Below are positions 6,022 through 64,000 of a stretch of DNA of 64,000 nt, in pieces (the first letter of the stretch is position 1; every line of letters begins with the position of its first letter). The position numbers and the translations under genes were made by a program. Under the pieces are notes generated by a model. The model made no database searches and was not told where the DNA came from. It saw only the letters and a program-made list of their open reading frames with translations. This DNA is from a virus (Duplodnaviria; Caudoviricetes). The stretch covers positions 14,609-78,608 of the IMG/VR virus record IMGVR_UViG_3300036942_000148. One strand, 5' to 3'.

Positions 6022-6259
6022 CAATTATTAATTTATTAACTTTATATTTCTATAAAGATTAGACTATATCATTATCCTTTTTTGAAGGATATTCCCTATT
6101 TCCACTATAATATTAGTGTACTCTCTTTCGAGATAGTCGTTGAACATTCTTATTAATTTATAATAAGATTTGCTGCTGATTGTCCATTAATAATGGATAT
6201 CCCAGCATTTAAAGGAATTTTTCATATAATATTACTATTATAAGGCTCAATGTTTATTT
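6022..6259 (-). mobile_element. Group I intron 3 (238 nt, no ORF)
   Basis: Exon GCUU pairs with intron GAGC (U.G at the splice site); core motifs AATCAGCAGC, GTTCAACGACTAT, GATATAGTCT; ends in G. Confidence 0.85.
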
Positions 6260-6390
6260 AAGCGTCATTCTACTTACTATACTTAATGGAGAACAAATTG
6301 CTTCTATTTTATCATCTTCATCATTTTCTGTATATGGAGCATTTTCTTCATCGAATATATCTCCGATTATACTTTTGAGGGCGATATTAA
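6260..6390 (-). CDS. rpoB: RNAP beta-like subunit, exon 3 (131 nt)
   Basis: Encodes NIALKSIIGDIFDEENAPY...CSPLSIVSRMTL, matching the bacterial beta GNKGVIS...NPLGVPSRM region. Confidence 0.85.
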
Positions 6391-6637
6391 CGTTTTTCTT
6401 TATATAAGATCGTTAATCTTACATCATAAAGCTATATATTTCTATATAGACGAGACTATATCAAAATCCTTAAATTAAGGATTCCCTTTATTTCTAATAG
6501 ACTTCTATTATAATATAGTCGTTGAATGTTCTTATTATTAAATTATAATAAGATCCACTGCTTATCATCCAATTAAGGAGTTTCAAGCAATTAAAAGGGT
6601 TTAGACATACTATCACTAGTATGAATCACTAAAATTC
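6391..6637 (-). mobile_element. Group I intron 2 (about 247 nt, no ORF)
   Basis: Core motifs AATTGCTTGAAACTCC, ATAAGCAGTG, TTCAACGACTAT, GATATAGTCT; ends AAAACG; removal restores GDKFT|FNIALK; the 5' boundary is inferred from frame, P1 pairing is weak. Confidence 0.8.
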
Positions 6638-7826: not shown

Positions 7827-8065
7827 CGTTTATATTATTATAGATTCATTAAATCTAAACTATATATTACTATATAGACTAGACTATATCATTATCCTTA
7901 TAGAAGGATACTTCCTTTTTCCATTAGATTTCTAATGTACTTTATAGTCGTTGAACGTTTTTTATTAGAATATAATAAAAATACGCTGCTTATTGTCCAA
8001 CTGGAGTTCTAAGCAATTAAGGAAATTTTCATAAATTATTACTAATTTATGCAGCTCTTGTTAAG

Positions 8066-9503: not shown

Positions 9504-12257
9504 ACTGAGGTTCTGTCCTGAAGGTCCCGAATAAGAAGAAGCGCCCATTGATTGGACTTCGATAAAAGGATTCAGAATAGAATATTCATTCACATTAGGT
9601 TGGTCTAAAATAGATTTTACAACTTCATCTTTCTTAACTGATATGTTAACATCAGTATTTCCACCACGTCTAGCATCTTTATATTTTCTAAAAGCATCTG
9701 CCATAGATTTATAAAGAATAGCGTTAACTTGTTCTGCTCCACGGAGTCTATAATTTTCCATACTATTCTTATCTTTATAAGCATTATTAGTTAATAACTC
9801 ATTAGCGTAAAGCAACACTCCCACGATATCAGTAGGTTGATCTAAATCTTCTAACACGTCTTCAGTAATGGGATCAATGAATAAATCCATGATGTTATTA
9901 AATGTTTTACCTTTTAATCTACTTCCATATAAATCTTGGAAGAAATCTAAATAAATAGTCTTTTCATTTAATTTATCGAATTCTACTTCTTTAGTGGGAG
10001 GCTCATAAAGTCCATTAAGAAGCATACTATTTCTAAATGGTTCGTTAGAATAATATAAATAACCATCTGCAAATTCCACCATGTTATATTTAGAATCTTC
10101 TTTGGGAGGTAAATTCTTCTTATCTTCAGTAAATTCATAATCAATATCATACCTATCTAAAACATTTTCTAAACCTTCATAGAAGCCTAATAATAAAATA
10201 GTAGGAACTTTTACGTTACCAGTTCTCACTCTACTATATACAAATCTATTACCAGCATTTTTACTATTTACTTTAGCATCAATATCTTCATCAAACTCAG
10301 AAATCAAGTTAGTTATAGTGGAATATAAATTACTACCTATATCATTTTTCTTATTACCATTCAAATAAGTAGAGAATACGTTGAATTCTTTCTTATTCAT
10401 CACCAATAGCTCTTTATCTTCATCGTTATAACCAAGAACTATCAGATCCTTATCATCTTCAACTTTGTCCAGTGCTTTGGTGTAATCTACTTTTTGTTTG
10501 TTTTCTATTTTTTCTATAACTTTAGATCTATCAAAGAATATATAATTATCTCCAATCTTAATTGAAATCATGTATTGAGATAGATCGTCATATTCCAGTG
10601 GATTATTATAATCTTCATTATTCCTCAATGCGTTTCCTTTTTCTACAGTTATTCTATTATAGTTCTTGATTTCTTCCACATTATCTACTAATTGCTTTCT
10701 AAGCTTAGTCATATTCTCACTGACATTAGTTCCAAACCTATTCATAAACATCTTACTGTAATTGCTAACCATCTGAACTTCATCTGGGTTGATCTTAGTA
10801 ATAGGTTTAGGGAATATCTGCTTCTTGATGAATTTCTTACCACCATTGATATAGAAGAATTGACCGTTCTCTACAATAGGAACATCTACTGAAACGGTAT
10901 GAGTTTGTCCGTTAACATCAGAAAACTTTATAGTGTAAGTTTCTTTCTTATTGAACTCGTCAGAAGTATCATCTTTTTCGAAACTTTCAAGGTAGACAGG
11001 AAATTCTTTATCATCATTGAAACCAGTAAGAATTGCAGCTTGATCCTGTTCGAATTGCTTTTCCATATAGTTTCTATCAAAATCTTTCATAGTAGATTGC
11101 TTCAGATCTTCATTGATCACGTCAGCTTCTATATTTTCCTTATCTATTTTTTTAGCTTGAAAGTTTTCTAATATTTCTTCTATAGTCTTTCCAGAATCCA
11201 TTTTAATCTTAGCTTGTTTGTCAGATAATTCATCTTTCCTCTTATCTAACACTTTCTGTTGATTGTTAGATATTCTCTTTTCATTAACTTTCTCTATATA
11301 TTTTTTAAATTCTTCGTTATCTTTTAAGTTTTCTATGATTTCATCCTCATCAACTTCCTGCTCACCTTCAGGAACTTCCTCATCAACTAGTTGTCTCACT
11401 TTCATGAAGTGTTCATTATTAGAGTTAATATCAAATAAATCAGATATCCTTCTAGCTATCTCATCTTTTATTCTTTCCTTACCTTCTTCATCTTCTGTCT
11501 GTTTTTCAACTTCTTGAGTTTTTTCAGTCTCATTATCTTGCTTAATATTATTCATAAACTTTTCTAATTGTGTATTAAATCTAGCACGGTTTACTTCCCC
11601 GTCTATCTTAAACTTCATCCACAATTTTTCTCTAGAGTTGTACAAAACAAAAGTGATATTTTCGAACCTTCTGTTCAATAGGTTCCTAGTATTAACCCAT
11701 TGGTAGATAAATGATAGAGGATGAGTGAGATTACTCCTATCGCTGTAGTCATAATATTCATTAACAGGAACTATGCAGTAAGCATTATCTCTATGAGGAA
11801 CTTTATTTTCATCTAATACTTGGTGTAAATAGTCTTCAAACATATTCACTTTCCGTTTCTTCTCGTACATCACCCTTTGGAAGAAACCATTTATATTAGG
11901 AGAAAGGTCATAAAAATAATTAATATCTTCATAGCTATCTAAGTTCCTTTTAGTCGTCTTTATATATTGGAAATTCTTCTTTAAATATTGGTAGTACTTC
12001 CTCCTATCGACTCTTATTTTAGTACCTCTAATTAGATCAGAATCTATATATCTATTAACGTAATAACCAGTTATTAATCTAGGGTAAAATAGTTCATTCT
12101 TTATCAAATCTTCTAAATCAGTTTTCTCTTTAGAAAGATTAAAAATTACATAATTATCATCATTATCTTTATCGTTAAAGATAAGTTTGTTATAATTATA
12201 TAAGTATAAATTTTTCAACTTTTTTATAGAATACACTAAATATGCACTTCCTTTCAT
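9504..12257 (-). CDS. rpoB: RNAP beta-like subunit, exon 1; the spliced product is 1383 aa, probably the virion RNAP beta N-terminal subunit
   Basis: VPIVENGQFFYINGGKKF, YRLRGAEQV and GPSGQNLS (fork loop 2) motifs; virion-type assignment is inferred from the late promoter and size. Confidence 0.9.
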
Positions 12258-12277
12258 ATATTATCTCATATAATATT

Positions 12278-13407: not shown

Positions 13408-13965
13408 TTGCTTTTAAATAACAACTCACTGAATCTAAATAAATTATATGAAATGAAATATAAAACATTTTCTAAATTCGATAACCTTAAAAAGTTCAGT
13501 AATAAAGATACTTACATTCATAATCTTGATAGGTATATTCTTCATACATTAGAAGAAATGGCTGAGGTTCAGTTGGATGAAGATGATAGAGAAGAGTCAA
13601 TTGATGTTCTATTATATTTAGGCACTATCTATTCTTTCATATCAAAAACATTAGAAAATAGTTATGATGTTTATTCAAGTAAATTTAATAAAGTCACTAT
13701 TATAGATGTCAATTATAAAGAAGACGAACAAGAAATAATGAACAATATTTTTATTAAGCTTATGCAGATCAGAAGGAAGTTCCCAGAAAGAAAGTGGCAC
13801 AAAAATATCACTGTTGATAGTGAAAAACATAAAGAGAGATTAATAGAATCTAAAGAGTTATTAGAAGAATGCATAACTCTAATATCGATGATAATCAAAA
13901 ACAAGTGTGAAGATGAAAATGAGTTCAATCAACTGATAGAAGAAAAGCATAATAAACTTCATTAA
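13408..13965 (+). CDS. MazG-like all-alpha NTP pyrophosphohydrolase
   Basis: EEMAEV...EESIDVLLY (EExxE...ExxD) metal-binding pattern. Confidence 0.6.
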   Translation: MLLNNNSLNLNKLYEMKYKTFSKFDNLKKFSNKDTYIHNLDRYILHTLEEMAEVQLDEDDREESIDVLLYLGTIYSFISKTLENSYDVYSSKFNKVTIIDVNYKEDEQEIMNNIFIKLMQIRRKFPERKWHKNITVDSEKHKERLIESKELLEECITLISMIIKNKCEDENEFNQLIEEKHNKLH

Positions 13966-13967
13966 AT

Positions 13968-13979
13968 AACAATTAAGTA
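13968..13979 (+). promoter_or_regulatory. AACA-N6-TA late-type promoter
   Basis: AACAATTAAGTA upstream of 14037; overlaps the terminator stem. Confidence 0.45.
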
Positions 13980-14017
13980 ATGTATAGATTTTATTATACA
14001 TTACTTATTTTTTTTTT
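13975..14017 (+). terminator. Intrinsic terminator
   Basis: AAGTAATGTATA/TATACATTACTT stem plus T run. Confidence 0.7.
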
Positions 14018-14036
14018 ATAATGAAAGGGTGATTTA

Positions 14037-15311
14037 ATGGCGTATGATAAGATAGTTGGATATAAATTTAAACCTATATTAAAAGCAATAGTAGATGGCG
14101 AAGATCAAGAGATCGATGTTTCTTCTAATATAAAAAAGATAGTAATTCAATCTGATTATAAAAATAGAATATTTCCTATAATGAAAATGCAACTAATTTT
14201 AAATGCTTCTAGGATAAATTTTTTTAAAGACAACGAACACAAACTTAAATTTAAATTAGATTTGAATAGATATAAATCTCAAGAAGTAGAAGAGGAAGAG
14301 TCATACACTTTTTATGATAATTATATTAAAGATTTAATACTGAAACCTTTTAACTTAAACCTCTCTAAAGTTACTACTTCAGAAAACGATACTAATCACG
14401 AGATAGTTCCCAGTAATCAATTAGAACTTACATTTTTTTCTGTGTTCCACCTCAATTACAATAAGAAAGTCCATAATAAAGTATTTAGGAATTGTCAGAT
14501 GAAGGATGTTCTACTCTATTTTCTAGATCAAAATACTGACGGTAAAAAATTATTGTTAAAGCAACCTGACAATGGTAAGAAATACGAGCAGGTGATAGTT
14601 CCTCCTGATAGTCTCACCAACATATTCTATTATCTTAATAGAAATTATGGAATATACAATAGTGGAATGAAGCTTTTCTTTGATTATAACAAGCATTACT
14701 TGATATCTAACGATTTTAAAAATGAGGTAGCGGTCACTCCTGATGAATATGACACTGTAATTTTCAACGTACTAAATCCTGATTCGGTTAGATATAAGAA
14801 TGTGAACTTTGGAATATTCGAAGATGAGGAAAGTAAAAAATATGAGATTATAATGAGAGATACTATAGAAAAAATAAATGCAACTGATGGTGAAAAAGAA
14901 ATATTTGGTGAAGAACTTTCTTTTCATTCTATAGATAAAAATAGTCATTTTAATGATAGAGATGTTGAAAATAAAAGAATAACTAGAAATGATAGAGATG
15001 ATGATATTAATTTTGAACAAGCTAAAGAAAAAGTATTATGGAATCCTTATAGTCATGAATATATAGAACGAGAATATAAACACCGAACAGAACAAAGACA
15101 AACTCAATTTAAAATTCCATTAGCTTATTTTAAATTAGATCTTATAACTCCTAATAAAAAATATATAATAAAATATAAAGAAGAAGATAATGCTAAAAAA
15201 TTTAATGGAACCTATCACTTAAATCAATTAAATTATCAATTTGTAAGATTAAATAATTATGAATACTTTGATATATATGGGGTAGGTCTATTTGAAAGAG
15301 TATTAGATTAA
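14037..15311 (+). CDS. Putative baseplate/tail structural protein
   Basis: 424-aa ORF in a structural context; hub-like VLLYFL...KKYEQVIVPP...YYLNRNYGIY segment. Confidence 0.5.
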   Translation: MAYDKIVGYKFKPILKAIVDGEDQEIDVSSNIKKIVIQSDYKNRIFPIMKMQLILNASRINFFKDNEHKLKFKLDLNRYKSQEVEEEESYTFYDNYIKDLILKPFNLNLSKVTTSENDTNHEIVPSNQLELTFFSVFHLNYNKKVHNKVFRNCQMKDVLLYFLDQNTDGKKLLLKQPDNGKKYEQVIVPPDSLTNIFYYLNRNYGIYNSGMKLFFDYNKHYLISNDFKNEVAVTPDEYDTVIFNVLNPDSVRYKNVNFGIFEDEESKKYEIIMRDTIEKINATDGEKEIFGEELSFHSIDKNSHFNDRDVENKRITRNDRDDDINFEQAKEKVLWNPYSHEYIEREYKHRTEQRQTQFKIPLAYFKLDLITPNKKYIIKYKEEDNAKKFNGTYHLNQLNYQFVRLNNYEYFDIYGVGLFERVLD

Positions 15312-18321: not shown

Positions 18322-19296
18322 TTAAAGAATTCCACTATTGAGATCAATATTAGTAGAATCTCCATCAGTATCATCTTCAATCTCTTTTTTAGCTTCAGCG
18401 TTCCCTTTTCTCTTTTGAACGTCAATCTTATCTGCAACGTCTCTTAACTTGCTGGCTAATTTTGCTTGCTTCTCTTTAGCATCGTCATCAGAGCTGATAG
18501 ACTCTTTATTAAGTTCTACATAATTAGCAATACTGTTTAAATAATCAGATACTTTTGCTCTAGTGAAATATACAAAGTAAATGATTTGCCTAATAGTCCA
18601 TACAAAGAAAAATGTTAGGATAATAATACTAAGTCCAGCACCAACAGCTGCAAAGAAATTTTCATTATCAAGACTCTTATTGGTAAACTTCTCAAATTTA
18701 CCATCTTCAATATACTTATTGAATTTTCTAACTGAGTTGAAAGTGTAATTGGTATCAGTTCCTTTTTCCAAATCATCTTCGAAACTCATTATTAAGTTAC
18801 CTGCTTTATCTTGCTTATATTTAATAGCATTAGTAACCAAATAAGTAATCGAAAATATTAGAGAAAATACTACTGATTCGTAATAGGTCTTCAATAAGAA
18901 ATTATCTTGACGATAAGCTTCTTGAAATTCTTTTTTATATTTATCTAAGTTAATCAATGCTTGATTAAGATTAGGTATAATATCAGGTGCATTATTTTCT
19001 ATATTATAAAGTTTAGTTAGAAACCTAACTGAATCTTTGATATCCTCAAAGTTCTTTATTCTAGAAATATCACCTTTAGTCTTTTCAATTTCTTCCATCT
19101 TAATATTATTAGATTTCTCTTTAATAGAGTCCACTACGCTATTGATTAAATCTACAGAGAGATTCTTCTTATCATTTTCCTGTAAGGAATGAAAATTCCT
19201 TTGAAAACTAACTGGTTTCTTGGATAAGATAGTTTCACTAATAATATGATCTAAATTTTCTCTAGTTTCAGTGATTATTGTGTCTTTTATGATCAA
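18322..19296 (-). CDS. Putative virion protein with a hydrophobic segment
   Basis: FFAAVGAGLSIIILTFFFVWTIRQIIYF hydrophobic stretch; in a late operon. Confidence 0.6.
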   Translation of the reverse strand: MIIKDTIITETRENLDHIISETILSKKPVSFQRNFHSLQENDKKNLSVDLINSVVDSIKEKSNNIKMEEIEKTKGDISRIKNFEDIKDSVRFLTKLYNIENNAPDIIPNLNQALINLDKYKKEFQEAYRQDNFLLKTYYESVVFSLIFSITYLVTNAIKYKQDKAGNLIMSFEDDLEKGTDTNYTFNSVRKFNKYIEDGKFEKFTNKSLDNENFFAAVGAGLSIIILTFFFVWTIRQIIYFVYFTRAKVSDYLNSIANYVELNKESISSDDDAKEKQAKLASKLRDVADKIDVQKRKGNAEAKKEIEDDTDGDSTNIDLNSGIL

Positions 19297-19311
19297 TTGA
19301 ATTACACCTCC

Positions 19312-20505
19312 TTAATTAGAAAGATCTAACATCATTTTCAGGTCACTTCTCTTAAGTCCAGAAGATGACTTACCCTTCTCTAAAGCAGAGAAAGACATTG
19401 TTTGCCAATCTTGAACTGAACTATCCCAAAAATATGCTAAATCATTAATTTCATCTAGAACTACGAAACCCAGTAAGTGATAAATATCCAATAATTTTTT
19501 AACTTGACTAGAATCCATAACGTCAACACCATACTCATTCTTCATTCTCTTAACTTCTTCTTTAGTAATTACGAAAGTAGTATTTGGAACAAACTTGTCT
19601 TTTCCAAATATCTCTCTAAACTTAGATTCAGAAGCTCTAGTCTTAAGTATGTGCCACCATCTAGATTTTCTTCTTCCTTTATTATCTTTTTCAAATTCAG
19701 CACGGATATTATCTAGGTTTAATAAGAAATCTTTGAAGAAACTAATTTCTCCACTAGTCCACTGAATCGCTTTGAATAAAACACTATTATCTTTAACTGA
19801 GTTAGCTAACTTTTCAGTCACTTCATTAGTAGGAAGAGCATGAGCAACAGCTTTAACTCCCAATACCAACTTGGTGTCCTTAATAGTGTTTTCTCCTTTA
19901 TAGTGAATATTTAATTCTAACAGAGAAGGTTGCTTAGAATTAAGTTTTTTGACATCTCTAGTATCGATATTAGCTTGGATCTGCTTATCTCTATCTTCTT
20001 CTTCCGAAATTTTATCTAAAATCTTCCAATCAATAGTTTTATCGTTCAATGAGTCAGATCTTAAATCTTCATCTATTGATTTAAGCATCTTTTCATTCAA
20101 TCGTTCAGCATTTTTAGTAATATATTTCGCAAGATCTTCACTTGACTTTAGACTAGTCGGTAAATTTTCTCTACTATCAGACATATCTATATTTTGATGG
20201 AATCTTTTAATGAACTCTGCTTTACTTTCTTTATCATTCACTAAATCGATAACGTCTTCTAAACCCATAGCAACTTTTACAAAAGAAGCATAATCAAGTT
20301 CAAGACTTTCAATTACAACTCTCAATACTTCTTTATCTACTGCATCACTAACTAATACTGGAAATTGCATTATTCCTTTACTAGCTTTCTTTTCAATATT
20401 ATCAGCAGACTTAAAAATATTGATAATCTTTTTTCCTGCAATTGATTTAGATCCTTTATAGATATCTTTAATAGAATCGACTAAAGCATTTATATCTTGG
20501 ATCAT
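19312..20505 (-). CDS. Putative virion structural protein
   Basis: 397-aa ORF with AGGAGG SD and a late-type promoter. Confidence 0.6.
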   Translation of the reverse strand: MIQDINALVDSIKDIYKGSKSIAGKKIINIFKSADNIEKKASKGIMQFPVLVSDAVDKEVLRVVIESLELDYASFVKVAMGLEDVIDLVNDKESKAEFIKRFHQNIDMSDSRENLPTSLKSSEDLAKYITKNAERLNEKMLKSIDEDLRSDSLNDKTIDWKILDKISEEEDRDKQIQANIDTRDVKKLNSKQPSLLELNIHYKGENTIKDTKLVLGVKAVAHALPTNEVTEKLANSVKDNSVLFKAIQWTSGEISFFKDFLLNLDNIRAEFEKDNKGRRKSRWWHILKTRASESKFREIFGKDKFVPNTTFVITKEEVKRMKNEYGVDVMDSSQVKKLLDIYHLLGFVVLDEINDLAYFWDSSVQDWQTMSFSALEKGKSSSGLKRSDLKMMLDLSN

Positions 20506-37373: not shown

Positions 37374-38462
37374 TTAAATATACTCTTCACCTTCAAAAAT
37401 TTCTTCTAATTTTAAAGGTGTTCTATATTTTCCAGAAAAATATTTATCATTGATATATCTCAATGCCTGACCATCTACTTTATTCACAATTTGATTGTCG
37501 ATGGATGCTTTCATCTTTTCATTCATCAAGTTATTGATTTCTCTATGTGAAATTTGTTTGAATGACTTTCTTAATCTTTCTTTCTGATTGTCCACAAACT
37601 CATCTTCAAGATCTCCAATGAAGTCATTTATATCTAAATACTCTATATTACTAATCTTTTCATCATCAATCCATTTTTGTATTTTATTAGAAGAACGAAT
37701 ATAACCATAACCATTTAAACCTTGAATATTATACCTTTTGTAACCCACTAAACTAAAAATAATAGGTAATAACTCTGGTATAAAAGTATATTCATCATAA
37801 TCTTTCTCGGTAAGTTTAGGGATAATATCTTCTTTTTCTAATACTTCAGAATTATCTTGCTTACAAGTCAAAACTATAGTATCATCTAATAAGGCATTCT
37901 GCCAAGAAAGTTTAGTATTGTTCAATATGACATTCAATTGATTTTCCTTATGGTAGTTAGTTATAAAATATCTAGGAAAACCTTCAGGATCGAACTCTTT
38001 AGTATTGATGAAATAGACATTAGGTATATAGTTCCCGATAGTTTTAGATAGTTTAATATTCTTCTCCATTATAGAATTTATGTTAGAGAATTCTGGGTTA
38101 TCATCGTTGATTCTTTTAGCATAATAATCCTTTTTATATTCTCTATTGATTTCTTTCAGTTTATCACATTCTCTGGTGGAGTAATAAAAGTAGAATGTAG
38201 TGTAAGTTTGATGTCTCGACCAGAAGTATCTCCTATAATGAGCCGCAATATTGAGTAGTTCTACTGTTATTAGGAACTTCTCACTATTATTCATAGTGTT
38301 AAAGTGTTCAATAGTTCTTGGATTATAAATACTGTTCAATAGTGAATAGATATCGATATAAAATACTACGTCATCCTTTTCTTCGGGTAAGTACTTCGGG
38401 AAGAAATCGTTAAGTATATTATATCTTATCTTTTTTGAATTTAATATCTTTTCAAGTATCAT
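37374..38462 (-). CDS. 5'-3' exonuclease/FEN-like protein, possibly catalytically degenerate
   Basis: N-terminal VFYIDIYS strand and H3TH-like LVGYKRYNIQGLNGYG. Confidence 0.45.
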   Translation of the reverse strand: MILEKILNSKKIRYNILNDFFPKYLPEEKDDVVFYIDIYSLLNSIYNPRTIEHFNTMNNSEKFLITVELLNIAAHYRRYFWSRHQTYTTFYFYYSTRECDKLKEINREYKKDYYAKRINDDNPEFSNINSIMEKNIKLSKTIGNYIPNVYFINTKEFDPEGFPRYFITNYHKENQLNVILNNTKLSWQNALLDDTIVLTCKQDNSEVLEKEDIIPKLTEKDYDEYTFIPELLPIIFSLVGYKRYNIQGLNGYGYIRSSNKIQKWIDDEKISNIEYLDINDFIGDLEDEFVDNQKERLRKSFKQISHREINNLMNEKMKASIDNQIVNKVDGQALRYINDKYFSGKYRTPLKLEEIFEGEEYI

Positions 38463-39392: not shown

Positions 39393-40343
39393 TTATAAAA
39401 CCATTTCATCGATATCAATAAAAGCATCTAATGTTTCTTTTGCTTTCTTTTCTTTCTCTTTCTTAATTTCATCTAATTTATTATTTAATCTTTGGTACTC
39501 TTCTTTATAATGTAATAAATTTTCTTTATGAATCTCTGTTCTTTCTTTTAAATCATTTAATTTTTTCTGATCTGGATTATCTTGTTTCTCTAAAATAGAA
39601 AGTTCTTTTTTAATTCTTTCCATTTTAGCCTTTTCTCTACCTTCTGCTCCATCTAAACTTTTTAAATCTCTTTTAATTTCTTGTATTTCTTCATATAATT
39701 CTAGTTCTTCCTGTTGTAATTGTTCCCATTTCTTCTGTTTTTCATTCTTAGCATTTTTTAATTCTTCGTTCTTACCCTCTAGTTGTCTAGAAATTTTTAA
39801 CATTTCCATTTCAAATTTCTCAGGGTCAGCATCAAAGTCAAGATTTTCAACTTCTCTATTGATTTTTTCATATTTTTTAGTATCAGCTAATATCTTGTCT
39901 AATTCTTTTCTTCTTTTCTTTGAATCTTTTAATTGTCTCTTAGCTAGATCATTAACTTTTTTATTAGTAGTTTCTAACTTCTTAGATTCTTGTTCTGTTT
40001 TTTGTATGCTCTTTTCTACTTTTTTATTGGATTTAATATCTTTCTCTGTTTTATCAGCTTTTCCAAATATCTTTTCTTTAATCTTCTTGAAAAAGTTCTT
40101 AATCATATCTAGTAACTTTTTAACCTGATCTTTGATCCAATTAATAACGTCTCCAATTTTACCTTCTAATAATTCTTCATCTTCATTGACAATAGCTTGA
40201 TGTTCTATTAACATGAACTTTTGAATCATACTATAATCTTCAATTAACATCTTGTTGAATTCTTCTGTTAATTGATATATTAAAGGATCTATATTAATAT
40301 CCTCTTCTAAGTATGGATCATTATCTAAAAACATAATTATCAT
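39393..40343 (-). CDS. Putative inner-head protein, MFLx family (start probably 40334)
   Basis: MFLD start, IEH motif, LLEG then an amphipathic helix and long coiled coil. Confidence 0.6.
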   Translation of the reverse strand: MIIMFLDNDPYLEEDINIDPLIYQLTEEFNKMLIEDYSMIQKFMLIEHQAIVNEDEELLEGKIGDVINWIKDQVKKLLDMIKNFFKKIKEKIFGKADKTEKDIKSNKKVEKSIQKTEQESKKLETTNKKVNDLAKRQLKDSKKRRKELDKILADTKKYEKINREVENLDFDADPEKFEMEMLKISRQLEGKNEELKNAKNEKQKKWEQLQQEELELYEEIQEIKRDLKSLDGAEGREKAKMERIKKELSILEKQDNPDQKKLNDLKERTEIHKENLLHYKEEYQRLNNKLDEIKKEKEKKAKETLDAFIDIDEMVL

Positions 40344-40408
40344 CCTTAATTGAAAATTTATATTAATTAACCTTTTCTACAATATTACATTAAATTACCC
40401 TATTATAT

Positions 40409-40420
40409 TATTACTTTGTT
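40409..40420 (-). promoter_or_regulatory. AACA-N6-TA late-type promoter
   Basis: AACAAAGTAATA upstream of 40343. Confidence 0.55.
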
Positions 40421-41234
40421 AGTTTAAGACTTTCTGGTTTTGAAACTTCATTTGTAATTAATAAACATTAATACACAATTATACAAAATAATTTTATAAA
40501 ATAATTTTTAAAAATAATTACTTTATAAAATTTAATTGTAACTGAAGTTTTATTTCAATTGAAAAATACTATTCAAATTAGATTATTGAATAGTATTATT
40601 ATTTTGAATTATGATATAAAATATTATTAAAAATTATTACCTAAACCCCCTTACCCCCTTAAATTACTCTTTCTCACTGTGTCTTTTTATTATTTTTGTT
40701 TTTCAATTCCACTCTTTTTAAATAAAAAATAATTTTCCCACCTTTAAAATTTAGTACAAAACTTTTTTCTAGCACTTCCATAATATATTGATATAATTAG
40801 TAGCGCACTGCGCTGCTAATTATTTGCAGCTCGGCAAAAATCTAATAAAACTTTAATGGTCGGTAAATCTCTTATTGATTTTCAATATAATCTGTGTAAA
40901 ATTTTTAATTAAATTTTAATAGTTCAAATTCATTTTTCTAAGGGAAAATTATATAAATCAAAATTGTAAAATTAGAATCTAATATATTTTGGACAATAAT
41001 CTCAAACAATATTAGAAATCAATAAACTAATTTATATATTAAAAATCAATAATAAATAAAAATTAAATGTAATAATCATTAATTTTCAATAAATTAATTT
41101 CAATTTCATTTTACTTTTCTGAAGGGAAAAGTATATAAATTTTGATAGAAATAATTATTTTAAACTGTAAGAATATTAAAAATAATCTAACAACGTGAAA
41201 AATATTTAATCCAACAATAGTTATTCAAAATTAA

Positions 41235-54612: not shown

Positions 54613-56076
54613 GTGGCAGAATCGGATAAATGGGAGGACTTAATTCATAGGACTGACAGCAGGGATCTCATAATAAGATTCGATGAAATATTCAATCAAC
54701 CAGACATCGACCACATGAACGACTTCTACATTAGAAAGAAGAAAAACTTTTCTAATACGATTGATGACGTAGTAGAAAGTGTCCAGATAGGATTTAGAAA
54801 CACTGAAGATATCGATATGGAGTATCTGACTCTAAAGTATAAGATGATAAAGGAAGAAATTTCGACAGAAGATGAGTTATACGACTATATTAAAGAAAAT
54901 ATTCTCACTGACGAGTTGTTGGAAACGTTTAGTAATTTCGTGGAGGAAAATTACCAAATTGACTTAGAGGACGTGGAGGATGAAGATGTAATTAATGAAA
55001 GTCTACAGATCAATAATAAACATGGTAAATGCATTTATAAGTCAGCGTATACTATTAGGTTTATCGCTCCATTGATCACTGAGTTTTATAATATTCAGAA
55101 CACCAAAGTGGACAAAAAATTCTTAATGAGAATGTTCCATGCAGTTTATGAAAAGTTCAATACAGATGACATTGATTTATTCAATAAACTTCATAAATTC
55201 GTCCAAAGTAGAGTTGTTACAACGCAATATTCTGATAGAAAGCAATGGAACTTCTTTAAAAGACTTGGTTTATCTTCTAAAGATCTAATATCAGAAATAT
55301 ATGAAAAGATATTAATCAATAGTATCCCTAAAGGTCTTATCGATCAAAATATAGTTAATTACTTTGCAGTAGTCATCAGGAGAAGCATCAGTTATTTCTT
55401 CCAGAGACCTTATGAATCTGACTATAGTTCCATCAATCTGAATTATGTAGATAGTGATGGATTAAGTAACTTAGATAAGTTAGAGATCAATATGGAAAGG
55501 TTGGATGAAGGTGAAGCTATATTAAAAAGACTTAATATCGATAGCACCATCAAAACATTGTTGAACAGGTTTGACTTCACAGTTACTAAAGAAGAATTAG
55601 ATTACTATATGGATAATGTTAAAATCAATAAACTTCAAACTAATCTCGTATTCTTGTTTTATTCTAGACATATGGGAAGTTATAAGAATCTTTATAATTG
55701 TACAAAGGAAGAATATATTGTAATATTAATCTTGATGTATAAGTATTTAGATAATAATGGTTTCTCTGTACTGAATAAATATCTGACAGGAATACCTTAT
55801 GAATTTAATCCTAAGAAGATGAAGAAAAAGAGGTTTGTTGAAGATCTTGTAGAGAGTAAGAAGTTTTTGAAATTAATGAATTACAAGTACAAGTATGTAA
55901 ATAATATAATGGTCGATAGTGGAGTAATTACTAAGATGATTTCTACCATCAATAATAATGAGTTTTACCATCTACCCCCTCTCGAAGAAGCAGAGGACGG
56001 TATGGAAGCTGAATATATTGATTATGGAATTAAAGAAATTACTAATGAACTATTAAGATTTATAGAGATAATTTAA
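54613..56076 (+). CDS. Candidate sigma-like promoter-specificity subunit of the non-virion RNAP (AR9 gp226/phiKZ gp68-like)
   Basis: 487 aa; NSIPKGLIDQNIVNYFAVVIRRSISYF resembles sigma region 2.3; two genes from the chaperonin, as for AR9 gp226 and gp228. Confidence 0.55.
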   Translation: MAESDKWEDLIHRTDSRDLIIRFDEIFNQPDIDHMNDFYIRKKKNFSNTIDDVVESVQIGFRNTEDIDMEYLTLKYKMIKEEISTEDELYDYIKENILTDELLETFSNFVEENYQIDLEDVEDEDVINESLQINNKHGKCIYKSAYTIRFIAPLITEFYNIQNTKVDKKFLMRMFHAVYEKFNTDDIDLFNKLHKFVQSRVVTTQYSDRKQWNFFKRLGLSSKDLISEIYEKILINSIPKGLIDQNIVNYFAVVIRRSISYFFQRPYESDYSSINLNYVDSDGLSNLDKLEINMERLDEGEAILKRLNIDSTIKTLLNRFDFTVTKEELDYYMDNVKINKLQTNLVFLFYSRHMGSYKNLYNCTKEEYIVILILMYKYLDNNGFSVLNKYLTGIPYEFNPKKMKKKRFVEDLVESKKFLKLMNYKYKYVNNIMVDSGVITKMISTINNNEFYHLPPLEEAEDGMEAEYIDYGIKEITNELLRFIEII

Positions 56077-57730: not shown

Positions 57731-58666
57731 ATGAAAAGTTTAATGGAATTAGATCTATTTAAAATTTCCAACAGTTCAAATAAAGAACTCGAAAAGAAAT
57801 TAACCAATATCAATATGAATAGAGATAAATTAGATCTTTCTGAAATAGAAGGTAATTTATCTACTATTAAAAGAAGATTTAAGTATGCATATAAAAGTAA
57901 AGCTTTGCAAGATGTTATAGATGAGAAGGTAATTTTCTTATATAATAAAGAAACAGTGGATATTCCTGTTTTTTTACCTTTTTTCTTGATGAATGAGGAT
58001 GGCGAGGTAGTTACTACAGTGAACCTAACTCCCTACGGAAGGTATGACAGAGATGATAATTTTGTGGTTGACAATAGATTACTGTTTTCTCTAATGCAGT
58101 CCGCTTCACTGACTAGAGAGATGTACTTTGACTTTAATAAAGTTAAGAATAATACTAAAATCGTTAAAAACACTGTACAAGCTTTTGCTAAATTAGTAGG
58201 AAAGTTACTTGATAGACACTTTGCTATTAATTTGAATCAAACTGTTACTGATTATATTTATTATTTAACAGCTAAGTATTTCTTAGTTAATGTGTTTGAG
58301 AGAGATCTGAGTAAGAGCGTGGATGACTTAGCTTATCAGGCTACTTTCAACGGAACTACCAAGAGTGGAATATCTACTTTTGAAGATGGATTGAGTGAAG
58401 AAGCCTTCACTTCAGTTGAAGGATACATCAATGCTCTGAGTGATATTGAAGGTCTAGATGATGTAACAGTGAGATTTTTCTTGAATGAGTGGATGAATAC
58501 TTATCATGAATCAACAGCGTTTGCTCTAGAATATTTACCTTATTTCTTTAATATGATATTCTCAGCTATGCTTACTGCTCATATTAATAATGAATTCTTG
58601 ATCGATAGTATTTTAGAAAAAGAAACTACTACAATATATAATGAATTGTCTAGAATTTTAGAATAG
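57731..58666 (+). CDS. Putative virion structural protein
   Basis: AGGAGG SD; first gene of a late tail operon. Confidence 0.6.
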   Translation: MKSLMELDLFKISNSSNKELEKKLTNINMNRDKLDLSEIEGNLSTIKRRFKYAYKSKALQDVIDEKVIFLYNKETVDIPVFLPFFLMNEDGEVVTTVNLTPYGRYDRDDNFVVDNRLLFSLMQSASLTREMYFDFNKVKNNTKIVKNTVQAFAKLVGKLLDRHFAINLNQTVTDYIYYLTAKYFLVNVFERDLSKSVDDLAYQATFNGTTKSGISTFEDGLSEEAFTSVEGYINALSDIEGLDDVTVRFFLNEWMNTYHESTAFALEYLPYFFNMIFSAMLTAHINNEFLIDSILEKETTTIYNELSRILE

Positions 58667-61772: not shown

Positions 61773-62078
61773 ATGGATACTTTAAAACAAATTGCAAAAG
61801 GTACTTTAGCGGATACACAGGGAACTCTCTATACAACCCCTGCAGGAACTACAGCAATAGTGAGATCTATAATTATTGCTAATCCAACTTCAACTGATGA
61901 GCAGGCAACTGTCATGTTCGATGGAGTTAACATAGTTCCAGGACACACTGTTCCTGCTAATGATACTTTAACTTTAGATTTAACATCCGTACTTGAAGAA
62001 AATATGCTAATAGAAGGATCAGCTAGTACAGCTTCTTCTTTAGATTATTATATATCTGGAATTGAGGTGACTACCTAA
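61773..62078 (+). CDS. Small tail fibre-associated beta protein
   Basis: LYTTPAGTTAIVRSIIIAN...YYISGIE; coupled to the next gene. Confidence 0.7.
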   Translation: MDTLKQIAKGTLADTQGTLYTTPAGTTAIVRSIIIANPTSTDEQATVMFDGVNIVPGHTVPANDTLTLDLTSVLEENMLIEGSASTASSLDYYISGIEVTT

Positions 62079-63907
62079 TGAGTAAATCATTACTTAGTGA
62101 CCACTTAGTAGGTGAGTCAGCTAGGATTAGAGAAACTTTGAAGGATGACGGAGTAAAATACAGCGTGGACAATGGTGTTGAAAACTCTTATCACGTAGAT
62201 ATTAAAGGCGTGGAAGAATACTTCAATGGAATGAAAGTTGCGTTCAAAGCTAGTAACAATAATAGTGACACTAGTACGTTTGAGATAAATAATCTTGGAC
62301 CTGTTCCTATAACTAAGAGTGGAACTGATGAGTTAGACCCAGAAGACGTTAAAGCTGATCAGATATCTATCCTTATGTACGATGGAACTAATTTTCAAAT
62401 CATTAGTGGTACAGGAGGGACAATCACAGCTACGAGAACCAATAGAGTTGTATTAGGTTTTGAAAGTAACACTTTTGATTTAGGCATTGCTAATTTTAAC
62501 ATTTCTAAAGATTACATTCAACTTTACCAAAATAGTACTTTCATTCAAATTAATGAAGATTATACTATTAGTGGTTCTACAGTTACCAAAAGTAGCGGAA
62601 CATGGGCAGCTGGAACTATTTTTGACGTAATAGTGATGAAAACGGTACAAGAAAAAGCCGATTTATTATATACAAATATGCAAGATGACACTTACACAGC
62701 TTCTACTGACGGAGAAACTGAGATTCCTTTTAATATTTCTTTTTCTTCTACTACTGATAAATTAATGGTCTACTATCAGGGCACTAGAATGGTAGAAGGA
62801 GATAATTATACTCTTAATGGAACTGAAGATGGAATAATCCTTCAGGATTTTGTTATTGATAGCGGAGAGAGTGTTTATTTTGAAGTATTAAAGAAAGTTA
62901 CTAATACCGACAATTTAACTTCTGGTAGTCAACTTAATGATCATAGTATTAATGAAGTAAAATTATCAAATGAACTTATAGATAAGATTAATATAATCAC
63001 TGCTAATGAAGTGAATTTTACTGACACTAATGTTAATTTTACAGCTAGTGATCTTCAAAGTGCTCTTGAAGCTTTAAATAATTCTTCTAATATTTCTTTT
63101 GATGATACTAATTTTTTTGGAAGTTCTTCTACTGTGAAAGAAGCTTTAGAATTAATTGGAAATAGAACAGTTCCAGTACAAATTATTTCTTCCTCGGATT
63201 TTATTAGTGGAAGTGAATTATCTAGTGCTTTAGGAATTACTGCAGGCACACTCCAGTTTTCTAATACTCCTTGGATAAGATTTCCTTCTCATTTAACTCC
63301 TAATGGTAAAACTCTTTATACTACTCTTAAGACTATTAGATATGGAATTTCTTGGGATGCTTTATATCAAGCTGGTGCAGTTTATGGCACTGGATCAACT
63401 ATTAGTGATGAAGAGCAGTATGTTTTAGATAACGATACTAGCTATAATGGAACTAACGGGACAGTCACACGTGTTGTTCAAGACGCTCAAGTTACTGTTA
63501 ATAATGCTAATTATAAAGTAAGACTTTTCAAAGGAGCTAATGATATTTATAGTGATGATAATGATACTGATAGGAGTAGCATTGGTCCTAATAATGAATG
63601 GAATTTATTAATGTTACCTTTACATGAACATGCTGAAGATGGCAATTGGAATTACCCTGAGCATGTTCCTGATAATTTGGAAGATTGGAATTTGCACTTT
63701 AATGATAGTGAAATGTTAACACATAATAATTTTGGAGCTGGAAATAGATCGTGGTGTCAAGAGTTTGGAAATTATGATGAAGGAAGTGGAGAATTCAGAC
63801 GAAGAGTGGATCGTGGCTATTATGGAGCGTCGTACTTGTGTCATACTAACTCGTACTATTCGGACGAGAGGGTTGGGTGGAGGCCAGTCTTGGAGATCGC
63901 CGATTAG
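62078..63907 (+). CDS. Tail fibre/receptor-binding protein with a C-terminal C-type-lectin-like domain; probable DGR target
   Basis: N-terminal fibre modules; C-terminus SWCQE...RVDRGYYG...GWRPVLE typical of CLec-fold variable proteins. Confidence 0.75.
   Translation: MSKSLLSDHLVGESARIRETLKDDGVKYSVDNGVENSYHVDIKGVEEYFNGMKVAFKASNNNSDTSTFEINNLGPVPITKSGTDELDPEDVKADQISILMYDGTNFQIISGTGGTITATRTNRVVLGFESNTFDLGIANFNISKDYIQLYQNSTFIQINEDYTISGSTVTKSSGTWAAGTIFDVIVMKTVQEKADLLYTNMQDDTYTASTDGETEIPFNISFSSTTDKLMVYYQGTRMVEGDNYTLNGTEDGIILQDFVIDSGESVYFEVLKKVTNTDNLTSGSQLNDHSINEVKLSNELIDKINIITANEVNFTDTNVNFTASDLQSALEALNNSSNISFDDTNFFGSSSTVKEALELIGNRTVPVQIISSSDFISGSELSSALGITAGTLQFSNTPWIRFPSHLTPNGKTLYTTLKTIRYGISWDALYQAGAVYGTGSTISDEEQYVLDNDTSYNGTNGTVTRVVQDAQVTVNNANYKVRLFKGANDIYSDDNDTDRSSIGPNNEWNLLMLPLHEHAEDGNWNYPEHVPDNLEDWNLHFNDSEMLTHNNFGAGNRSWCQEFGNYDEGSGEFRRRVDRGYYGASYLCHTNSYYSDERVGWRPVLEIAD
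63740..63907 (+). other. Candidate DGR variable region (VR)
   Basis: Abrupt GC and codon shift (TCG TAC TTG TGT CAT ACT AAC TCG TAC TAT TCG GAC GAG AGG) over the last codons of the CLec domain; 5' boundary approximate. Confidence 0.6.
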
Positions 63908-64000
63908 GCGATCGGCTCTTACCTCGCTCGTATGGTCTTAGAGCTGGAGGCTCGAACGAAGGTGAGAGCGTAAGCTCAGAGTCGGAAGTCCGAGCGAAGG
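63895..64000 (+). other. GC-rich hairpin cluster at and after the VR 3' end
   Basis: GATCGCC-GATTA-GGCGATC (63895-63913); CTCTTACCT/AGGTGAGAG (63916-24 with 63960-68); CCTCGCTCG/CGAGCGAAGG (63922-30 with 63991-64000). Confidence 0.6.

Follow-up and report, generated by a model that had tools for sequence, protein, structure and literature searches.

A probable diversity-generating retroelement target at the tip of a tail-fiber-like protein of an AR9/PBS1-like jumbo phage

Near the 3' end of a 64,000-nt stretch of viral DNA (here called the window; positions 14,609 to 78,608 of the IMG/VR record IMGVR_UViG_3300036942_000148, Caudoviricetes) lies a gene for a 609-residue tail-fiber-like virion protein, whose final codons depart abruptly in composition from the AT-rich genome around them. 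This raises the question of whether the end of the gene is a variable region (VR), rewritten by a diversity-generating retroelement (DGR), as a preliminary description of the sequence had proposed. The analysis reported here indicates that it very probably is: positions 63803-63889 would represent a DGR VR at the tip of a C-type-lectin (CLec) fold, carried by an AR9/PBS1-like jumbo phage. The hallmarks of DGRs are present, namely mismatches at the adenines of a template repeat (TR), a reverse transcriptase (RT) of the DGR clade, the accessory protein Avd, a C-terminal VR in a CLec target and, with putative function, a block resembling the initiation of mutagenic homing (IMH) element and a hairpin following the VR.

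The window ends where its contig ends (G000, 78,608 bp; 31% complete according to CheckV), and the cassette was found on another contig. A 24-nt pattern taken from downstream of the stop codon was found, letter for letter, in two IMG/VR contigs, both from one sample, and no match to the post-stop pattern was found in metagenome contigs. The minus strand of contig G007 (32,816 bp) begins with the last 127 nt of the window, letter for letter, and then continues; adjacent contigs of a de Bruijn assembly with k=127 overlap by exactly 127 nt. Past the overlap follow the rest of a hairpin motif described below, a terminator-like hairpin of 15 bp with a run of T, an AT-rich spacer of about 150 nt, the gene for Avd (bAvd), the TR, an RNA of the Rfam family RT-9 and the RT gene (coordinates on G007 are given for locus L040, and those on a third contig, G006, for locus L039). 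The preliminary description had expected the template, the accessory gene and the RT just beyond position 64,000, and had advised a search for a near copy with adenine mismatches and for an RT. Both were found on G007 and neither on the window's contig, and all three elements are reached through the 127-nt overlap, although the cassette may adjoin a paralogous second target instead of the window gene.

The comparison of VR and TR carries the main argument. The two align over 87 nt without a gap, and 13 of the 14 differences between them are at adenines of the TR (Fisher p=2.2e-6), the mutated positions spanning 63809-63873. The share of TR adenines that have changed is 42% in the window's VR. 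The in-frame translation of the TR is R V N R G N N G A S N L N H N N S Y N T N E N N G W R P V, and its 11 AAY codons allow 15^11 (about 9e12) possible tips; templates built of AAY codons are the classic DGR design and are unable to yield stops. The VR and TR end in an identical, GC-rich block of 15 nt (63875-63889). Past GGGTGGAGGCCAGTC the next five nucleotides are TTGGA in the VR and CTGAA in the TR, a difference of a single C>T and a single A>G, and the shared block may play the role of IMH and IMH*, by analogy with BPP-1 (PMC5758913). The VR is thus recognized as the preliminary description had it, on the strength of TR, bAvd and RT, yet it is shorter (about 87 nt) than the 63740-63907 then envisaged. 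Similarly, the compositional switch is real, GC rising from 0.31-0.35 per 100-nt window (63600-63799) to 0.52 (63800-63899) and 0.57 (63850-63999) in a contig with 0.29 overall, but it concerns about the last 36 codons, from approximately 63800, and not some 55.

The RT on G007 matches RVT_1 in two halves (37 and 39 bits, above the cut-off) that are parted by an in-frame TAA. When read through, it is 33% identical to the Brt protein of BPP-1 over 95% of its length (E=3e-48), its remaining best matches among cultured phages are DGR RTs, and its motifs GLPLGNxTSQ and YMDD align with those of RTs from related DGR loci; no close relative of it was found in IMG/VR. The RT-9 match lies outside the window, where the cDNA-priming spacer RNA is located in BPP-1, and by this analogy it may be the priming spacer. 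An AACA-N6-TA match was also observed in the AT-rich spacer, some 25 nt before avd begins (L040 13285-13274, minus strand); with six specified bases in DNA so rich in A and T, it may be due to chance.

A second target is served by the same TR. The minus strand of G006 (97,794 bp) starts with a 290-residue paralog, whose C-terminal domain is 60% identical to that of the window protein and whose last 127 nt are identical to the last 127 nt of the window. Its VR differs from the TR at 15 positions, 14 of them adenines (Fisher p=5.8e-7). Three natural variants of the 290-residue protein, from different JGI contigs, differ at 12-16 of the 290 residues, and 9-10 of these differences fall within the 29-codon VR. 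Each of the 11 VR codons that vary has an adenine in the TR (10 AAY and one CAT, changed to CGT or CTT). Because the variants differ mainly in the VR, and there at adenine codons only, the element has been active; adenine-specific variation in relatives, which the preliminary description had named as a check, is therefore present, at the sister target. P0141, an intact-RT protein, and the target variant P0263 both have a longest contig of 6,312 bp and are probably encoded on one JGI contig. This hints that the 290-residue gene is the target adjoining avd, the window gene then being a remote one, and since both targets possess the same 3' tail, the cassette may indeed adjoin the former rather than the latter.

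Of the seven positions at which both VRs are mutated, four carry the identical substitution (AAT to TAT twice, AAC to TAC and AAC to GAC; window 63818-63823, 63833-63835 and 63863-63865), producing G-Y-Y-G-A-S-Y and D. Tyrosine is frequent at these sites in distant homologs as well, and the shared substitutions suggest selection for structural residues within the VR. The remaining, non-adenine mismatch adjoins an A>G change in both VRs, so that a TR AAT becomes AGG (Arg), at different codons: codon 23 in the window (63869-63871) and codon 19 in G006 (L039, approximately 160-158, minus strand). Such paired T>G/A>G changes may reflect selection for arginine or dinucleotide misincorporation.

The target protein itself is consistent with this role. 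Its C-terminus, translated as ...SWCQE...RRVDRGYYGAS...GWRPVLEIAD, is as the preliminary description had read it. No Pfam family was matched in a Pfam search of the 609 residues, and the only PHROG matches are to families of unknown function or annotated as "virion structural protein"; residues 123-358 resemble a protein of Bacillus phage CampHawk that is flanked by tail-fiber and tail-spike genes. An AlphaFold model of residues 370-609 (predicted local distance difference test, pLDDT, 80; predicted template modeling score, pTM, 0.83) was compared with known structures by VIA, and the best 50 matches were all CLec/FGE folds, including TvpA (Z=6.9), Mtd (6.1) and TaqVP (5.8). As in these three proteins (2Y3C, 1YU0 and 5VF4, respectively), a CLec/FGE-type fold is predicted and the variable residues occupy the last 30 or so before a GW.PV-type end. 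Unlike in them, sequence identity is just 12-16%, there is no Pfam family, and phiKZ-like phages have members of the domain family in virion proteins with no DGR. Among 20 homologs a common frame, WCQE...RRV.RG..GAS..L, is followed by about 12 hypervariable residues and GWRPVLE. In three unrelated viral contigs the 3' end of the homologous gene has a near copy 450-600 nt downstream. Where the two differ, the downstream copy has an adenine in 6/6, 12/12 and 9/10 cases, and in each contig an RT above the Pfam cut-off comes after it. The target family is therefore a family of DGR targets. A 99%-identical variant of the window protein (P0006, from a 3,691-bp JGI contig) was also noted; it lacks roughly residues 131-192 through an internal deletion and is frameshifted around residue 462, and in its assembly the gene is truncated well upstream of the VR.

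The end of the gene is predicted to fold as well as being GC-rich. The perfect 7-bp hairpin across the stop codon, already pointed out in the preliminary description, is confirmed: GATCGCC (63895-63901) pairs with GGCGATC (63907-63913) around the loop GATTA, and the TAG stop (63905-63907) is enclosed. It begins 5 nt past the end of the TR/VR homology and is present only after the VR. The post-stop region is more stable than shuffled sequences, both as RNA (z=-6.4) and as DNA (z=-6.7). A search of 63400-64000 against Rfam gave rows at chance level only. The hairpins described after VRs by Guo et al. 2011 have GC-rich stems of 7-10 bp and 4-nt GRNA loops and lie 4-34 bp from the VR, and that of BPP-1 contains the mtd stop codon (PMC3240598). 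The hairpin in the window agrees with these in position, its loop being one nucleotide longer.

The further stems mentioned in the preliminary description proved to be two tandem copies of a covarying hairpin motif of 37 nt, the second of which is cut by the contig end and completed by a further 15 nt on G007 (L040 13393-13407, minus strand). Single copies occur between target stop and avd in four other loci (L002, L003, L008 and L006). The sequence of the outer 5-bp stem varies while its pairing is kept, around a core of GGAAG followed by AGCG-N-AGGCG-N-AG. In the small sample of six instances, each of the eight pairs tested has changes in both partners; pairing holds in 95.5% of cells, compared with 16-42% when the partner is slid, and none of 500 shuffles reaches the score. 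In this phage the terminator separates the motif from avd, and both targets have at least the first 59 nt of the motif downstream of them. The motif is for these reasons regarded as associated with the target, and it may represent a longer version of the post-VR hairpin already known. When IMG/VR was scanned with a degenerate pattern of the hairpin core, 20 stretches matched, but the true instances among them were limited to L040 and L065 (the L003 contig); the others lie in GC-rich coding DNA, where neither a target-like gene end nor an RT is close by. The motif thus appears confined to a small subfamily.

The whole arrangement resembles the DGR of phage BPP-1 (mtd-avd-TR-brt). The order is likewise target, avd, TR, spacer and RT, the VR forms the 3' end of a receptor-binding-type CLec gene, the TR is rich in AAY codons, a similar proportion of its adenines (about 40-45%) is mutated and the RT is related to Brt; a GC-rich block at the 3' boundary of VR and TR and a GC-rich post-VR hairpin enclosing a TAG stop complete the likeness. 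By every defining feature tested this is a canonical DGR, and the mechanism proposed for it is a known one. It differs from the BPP-1 element in its host, a jumbo phage of about 250 kb by our reconstruction as opposed to a 42-kb podovirus, in having two targets, in the hairpin loop (5 nt, GATTA, in place of the 4-nt GRNA), in the two additional conserved hairpins and the intrinsic-terminator-like hairpin between target and avd, and in an RT polymorphic for a nonsense codon. On the BPP-1 model, an RNA comprising avd, TR and spacer would be reverse-transcribed by a complex of RT and Avd that misincorporates nucleotides opposite template adenines, and the cDNA would replace the VR, guided by the GC-rich IMH-like block and the downstream hairpins. 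Eleven AAY-templated codons would be randomized in this manner, giving some 10^13 possible tips and never a stop codon, and the same TR would serve both the 609-residue target of the window and the paralogous 290-residue target on G006. The tips would presumably act in receptor binding.

The three contigs G000, G006 and G007 are likely to be parts of one AR9-like genome of about 250 kb with a two-target DGR. They have no open reading frames (ORFs) in common except for the target domain and one multi-copy family, their GC is 0.27-0.30, and their CheckV completeness values (31, 38 and 13%) add up to 82%. Dispersed repeats of about 200 nt, 68-83% identical, are common to all three. That target and cassette may share a genome is suggested by the exact 127-nt junction, the complementary genes and the common repeats and GC. 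A virion protein gene near the target (57731-58663) matches only phages AR9, PBS1, BpSp, LPJP1 and those of the Staphylococcus S6 type, at about 31% identity, and G007 encodes a tail sheath 44% identical to that of AR9/PBS1, which is absent from the window's contig. Judging from these AR9-type structural genes the phage is AR9/PBS1-like, and on lineage alone it is plausible that its DNA contains uracil. The features discussed are collected in Table 1.

Table 1. Positions of the features in the window and on the two related contigs (L040, locus on G007)
Feature	Position	Strand	Basis
Probable DGR target gene, 609 aa, tail-fiber-like virion protein	62078..63907	+	ORF
C-terminal domain, residues 370-609, predicted CLec/FGE-like fold	63185..63904	+	AlphaFold and VIA
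Probable VR, 29 codons, residues 576-604 of 609, 87 nt	63803..63889	+	gapless match to TR
IMH-like end of VR	63875..63894	+	GC-rich block of 15 nt shared by VR and TR, then 5 diverging nt
Hairpin 1 around the stop, GC-rich stem of 7 bp without mismatch, loop of 5 nt	63895..63913	+	inverted repeat and folding
Post-VR hairpin motif, copy A, 37 nt	63941..63977	+	aligned with copy B and with L002, L003, L008, L006
Post-VR hairpin motif, copy B (cut by contig end)	63979..64000	+	
bAvd, 118 aa	L040 13249-12893	-	PF22296, 54.5 bits (cut-off 40)
TR, 92 nt	G007; VR-matching part L040 12842-12756	-	alignment to VR
RT-9 RNA (RF03080)	G007, between TR and RT start	-	Rfam, 76.1 bits (gathering 46.1), model positions 1-92 of 92
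Repeats of about 200 nt, window	6022-6602, 7827-8032		
Repeats of about 200 nt, G006	12060-12267, 37434-37672, 40313-41162, 55425-55912, 89663-89870		
Repeats of about 200 nt, G007	13786-14498, 19011-19549		

Besides the cassette, G007 carries an IS605-type TnpB gene (L040 7636-8781, plus strand; OrfB_IS605, Cas12f1-like TNB and HTH_OrfB_IS605), which lies about 3 kb from the DGR RT and adjoins genes for a tail tube, an amidase and a C92 peptidase.

Several observations weigh against a DGR target at this site. The 78.6-kb contig of the window has neither an RVT_1 match nor a second copy of the 261-nt region, and its link to G007 rests on the 127-nt assembly junction. No second full-length copy of the window gene was found in exact-pattern scans of viral and metagenome contigs, and there is consequently no population evidence for the window's own VR. 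Each VR contains exactly one change away from an adenine, the T>G described above. With the model of the C-terminal domain, Foldseek found nothing in the PDB at E<=0.001, the same CLec/FGE families surfacing but weakly (E>0.01), and Z-scores of 6-7 are middling, so that the fold is assigned because the list of matches is uniform rather than from the scores. Lastly, the RT on G007 stops at residue 198 of 360, ahead of the YMDD motif. Could the GC-rich end, then, be simply a conserved lectin-like terminus followed by a terminator? Virion structural proteins with the lectin-like domain are common among phiKZ-like and other jumbo phages (PhiPA3, PhiEaH1, SCTP-2, RsoM3USA), and in the jumbo-phage contigs L014 and L023-L035 no RT was found within 10 kb. 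In loci L014, L023 and L026-L035, neither an RT-like ORF nor a TR was found within 10 kb, and the domain family is therefore used both with and without a DGR. Yet a TR with adenine mismatches, bAvd, the RT-9 RNA and a DGR RT are all present here and natural variation at the sister target is restricted to adenines, which leaves this explanation scarcely credible. It is also improbable, if less so, that G007 derives from another phage or strain and that the window phage holds an orphan VR with no cassette of its own. Both the window and G006 flow into G007, as would distinct genomes sharing a repeat, and the window's contig is without an RT; on the other side stand the exactness of the junction, the adenine differences that relate the window VR to the TR on G007, the complementary genes, common repeats and GC of three contigs that sum to about 82% of one genome, and the presence of AR9-type single-copy structural genes on both G000 and G007.

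A DGR target thus remains by far the preferred interpretation of the VR, and the truncated RT bears on a different matter, that of whether the tip is still being diversified. The stop results from a single CAA to TAA change that replaces the glutamine of GLPLGNxTSQ (L040 12001-11999, minus strand). The intact protein of 360 residues (P0021, P0141) occurs in four contigs, one from Logan and three from JGI, and the truncated form of 197 residues (P0142, P0143) in three, two from JGI (including G007) and one from Logan; residues 1-197 are identical among all four members. Recoding of TAA was rejected, since it is the main stop codon and terminates 48 of 64 long ORFs, as was a suppressor tRNA, there being no tRNA in the 209 kb of the three contigs, and an assembly error, given that the truncated product appears in three contigs from two sources. 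On these sequences the RT is naturally polymorphic, and it is the null allele to which the window is joined, for which reason the tip in this strain is probably frozen for now. The nonsense codon may even have become fixed in the strain, the VR having been written by the DGR and its tip being left as a frozen relic, a reading to which we would give somewhat less than an even chance. The position of the TAA in the window-joined RT, its recurrence in contigs from two sources and the failure of recoding and suppression speak for it. Against it speak the intact and otherwise nearly identical allele in four contigs, and the fact that the TR and the two VRs each agree at all but one non-adenine position and that all 11 AAY codons are kept, so that any inactivation must be very recent; moreover, a mixed population can hide behind a metagenome consensus.

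Although DGRs are very common in phages (PMC8241571), a search of the literature turned up no paper on a DGR from the AR9/PBS1 lineage. The AR9-like Staphylococcus phages MarsHill, Madawaska, Machias and DC4 resemble the present phage in being AR9-related jumbo phages with an RT gene and presumed uracil DNA. Their RTs have been described as retron-like, of unclear function and lacking the hallmark regions of DGRs (bioRxiv 10.1101/2020.12.14.422802; PMC10638138), in contrast to the TR, VR, Avd and spacer RNA that are all found here. A complete two-target DGR in an AR9-like lineage would therefore fill a gap, as the published descriptions of such phages report an RT without DGR hallmarks.

A further point of potential interest is the possible chemistry of the phage DNA. 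Handa et al. 2018 reported that bRT-Avd prefers dUTP about 10-fold and suggested that this may be relevant where dUTP is high (PMC6182149), and Naorem et al. 2017 found that adenine mutagenesis itself does not require dUTP (PMC5703328). If the phage has uracil DNA, as do AR9, PBS1 and S6, it would offer a natural system for adenine mutagenesis with dUTP in place of dTTP, the question raised by Handa et al. A combined interpretation may be entertained, tentatively and as the less likely course, in which a complete DGR works in a uracil-DNA phage, with a dUTP-rich and dTTP-poor pool and integration into uracil-containing DNA, the covarying double hairpin serves as a lineage-specific recognition element of two distant targets, and the CAA/TAA change of the RT acts as a natural on/off switch. 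Were it true, the dUTP preference of the BPP-1 RT-Avd complex (PMC6182149) would be the normal working condition, yet about 42-45% of the template adenines would still be mutated. The hairpin after the VR and the polymorphism between intact and nonsense RT alleles also provide leads on how targets may be recognized and how diversification may be switched off.

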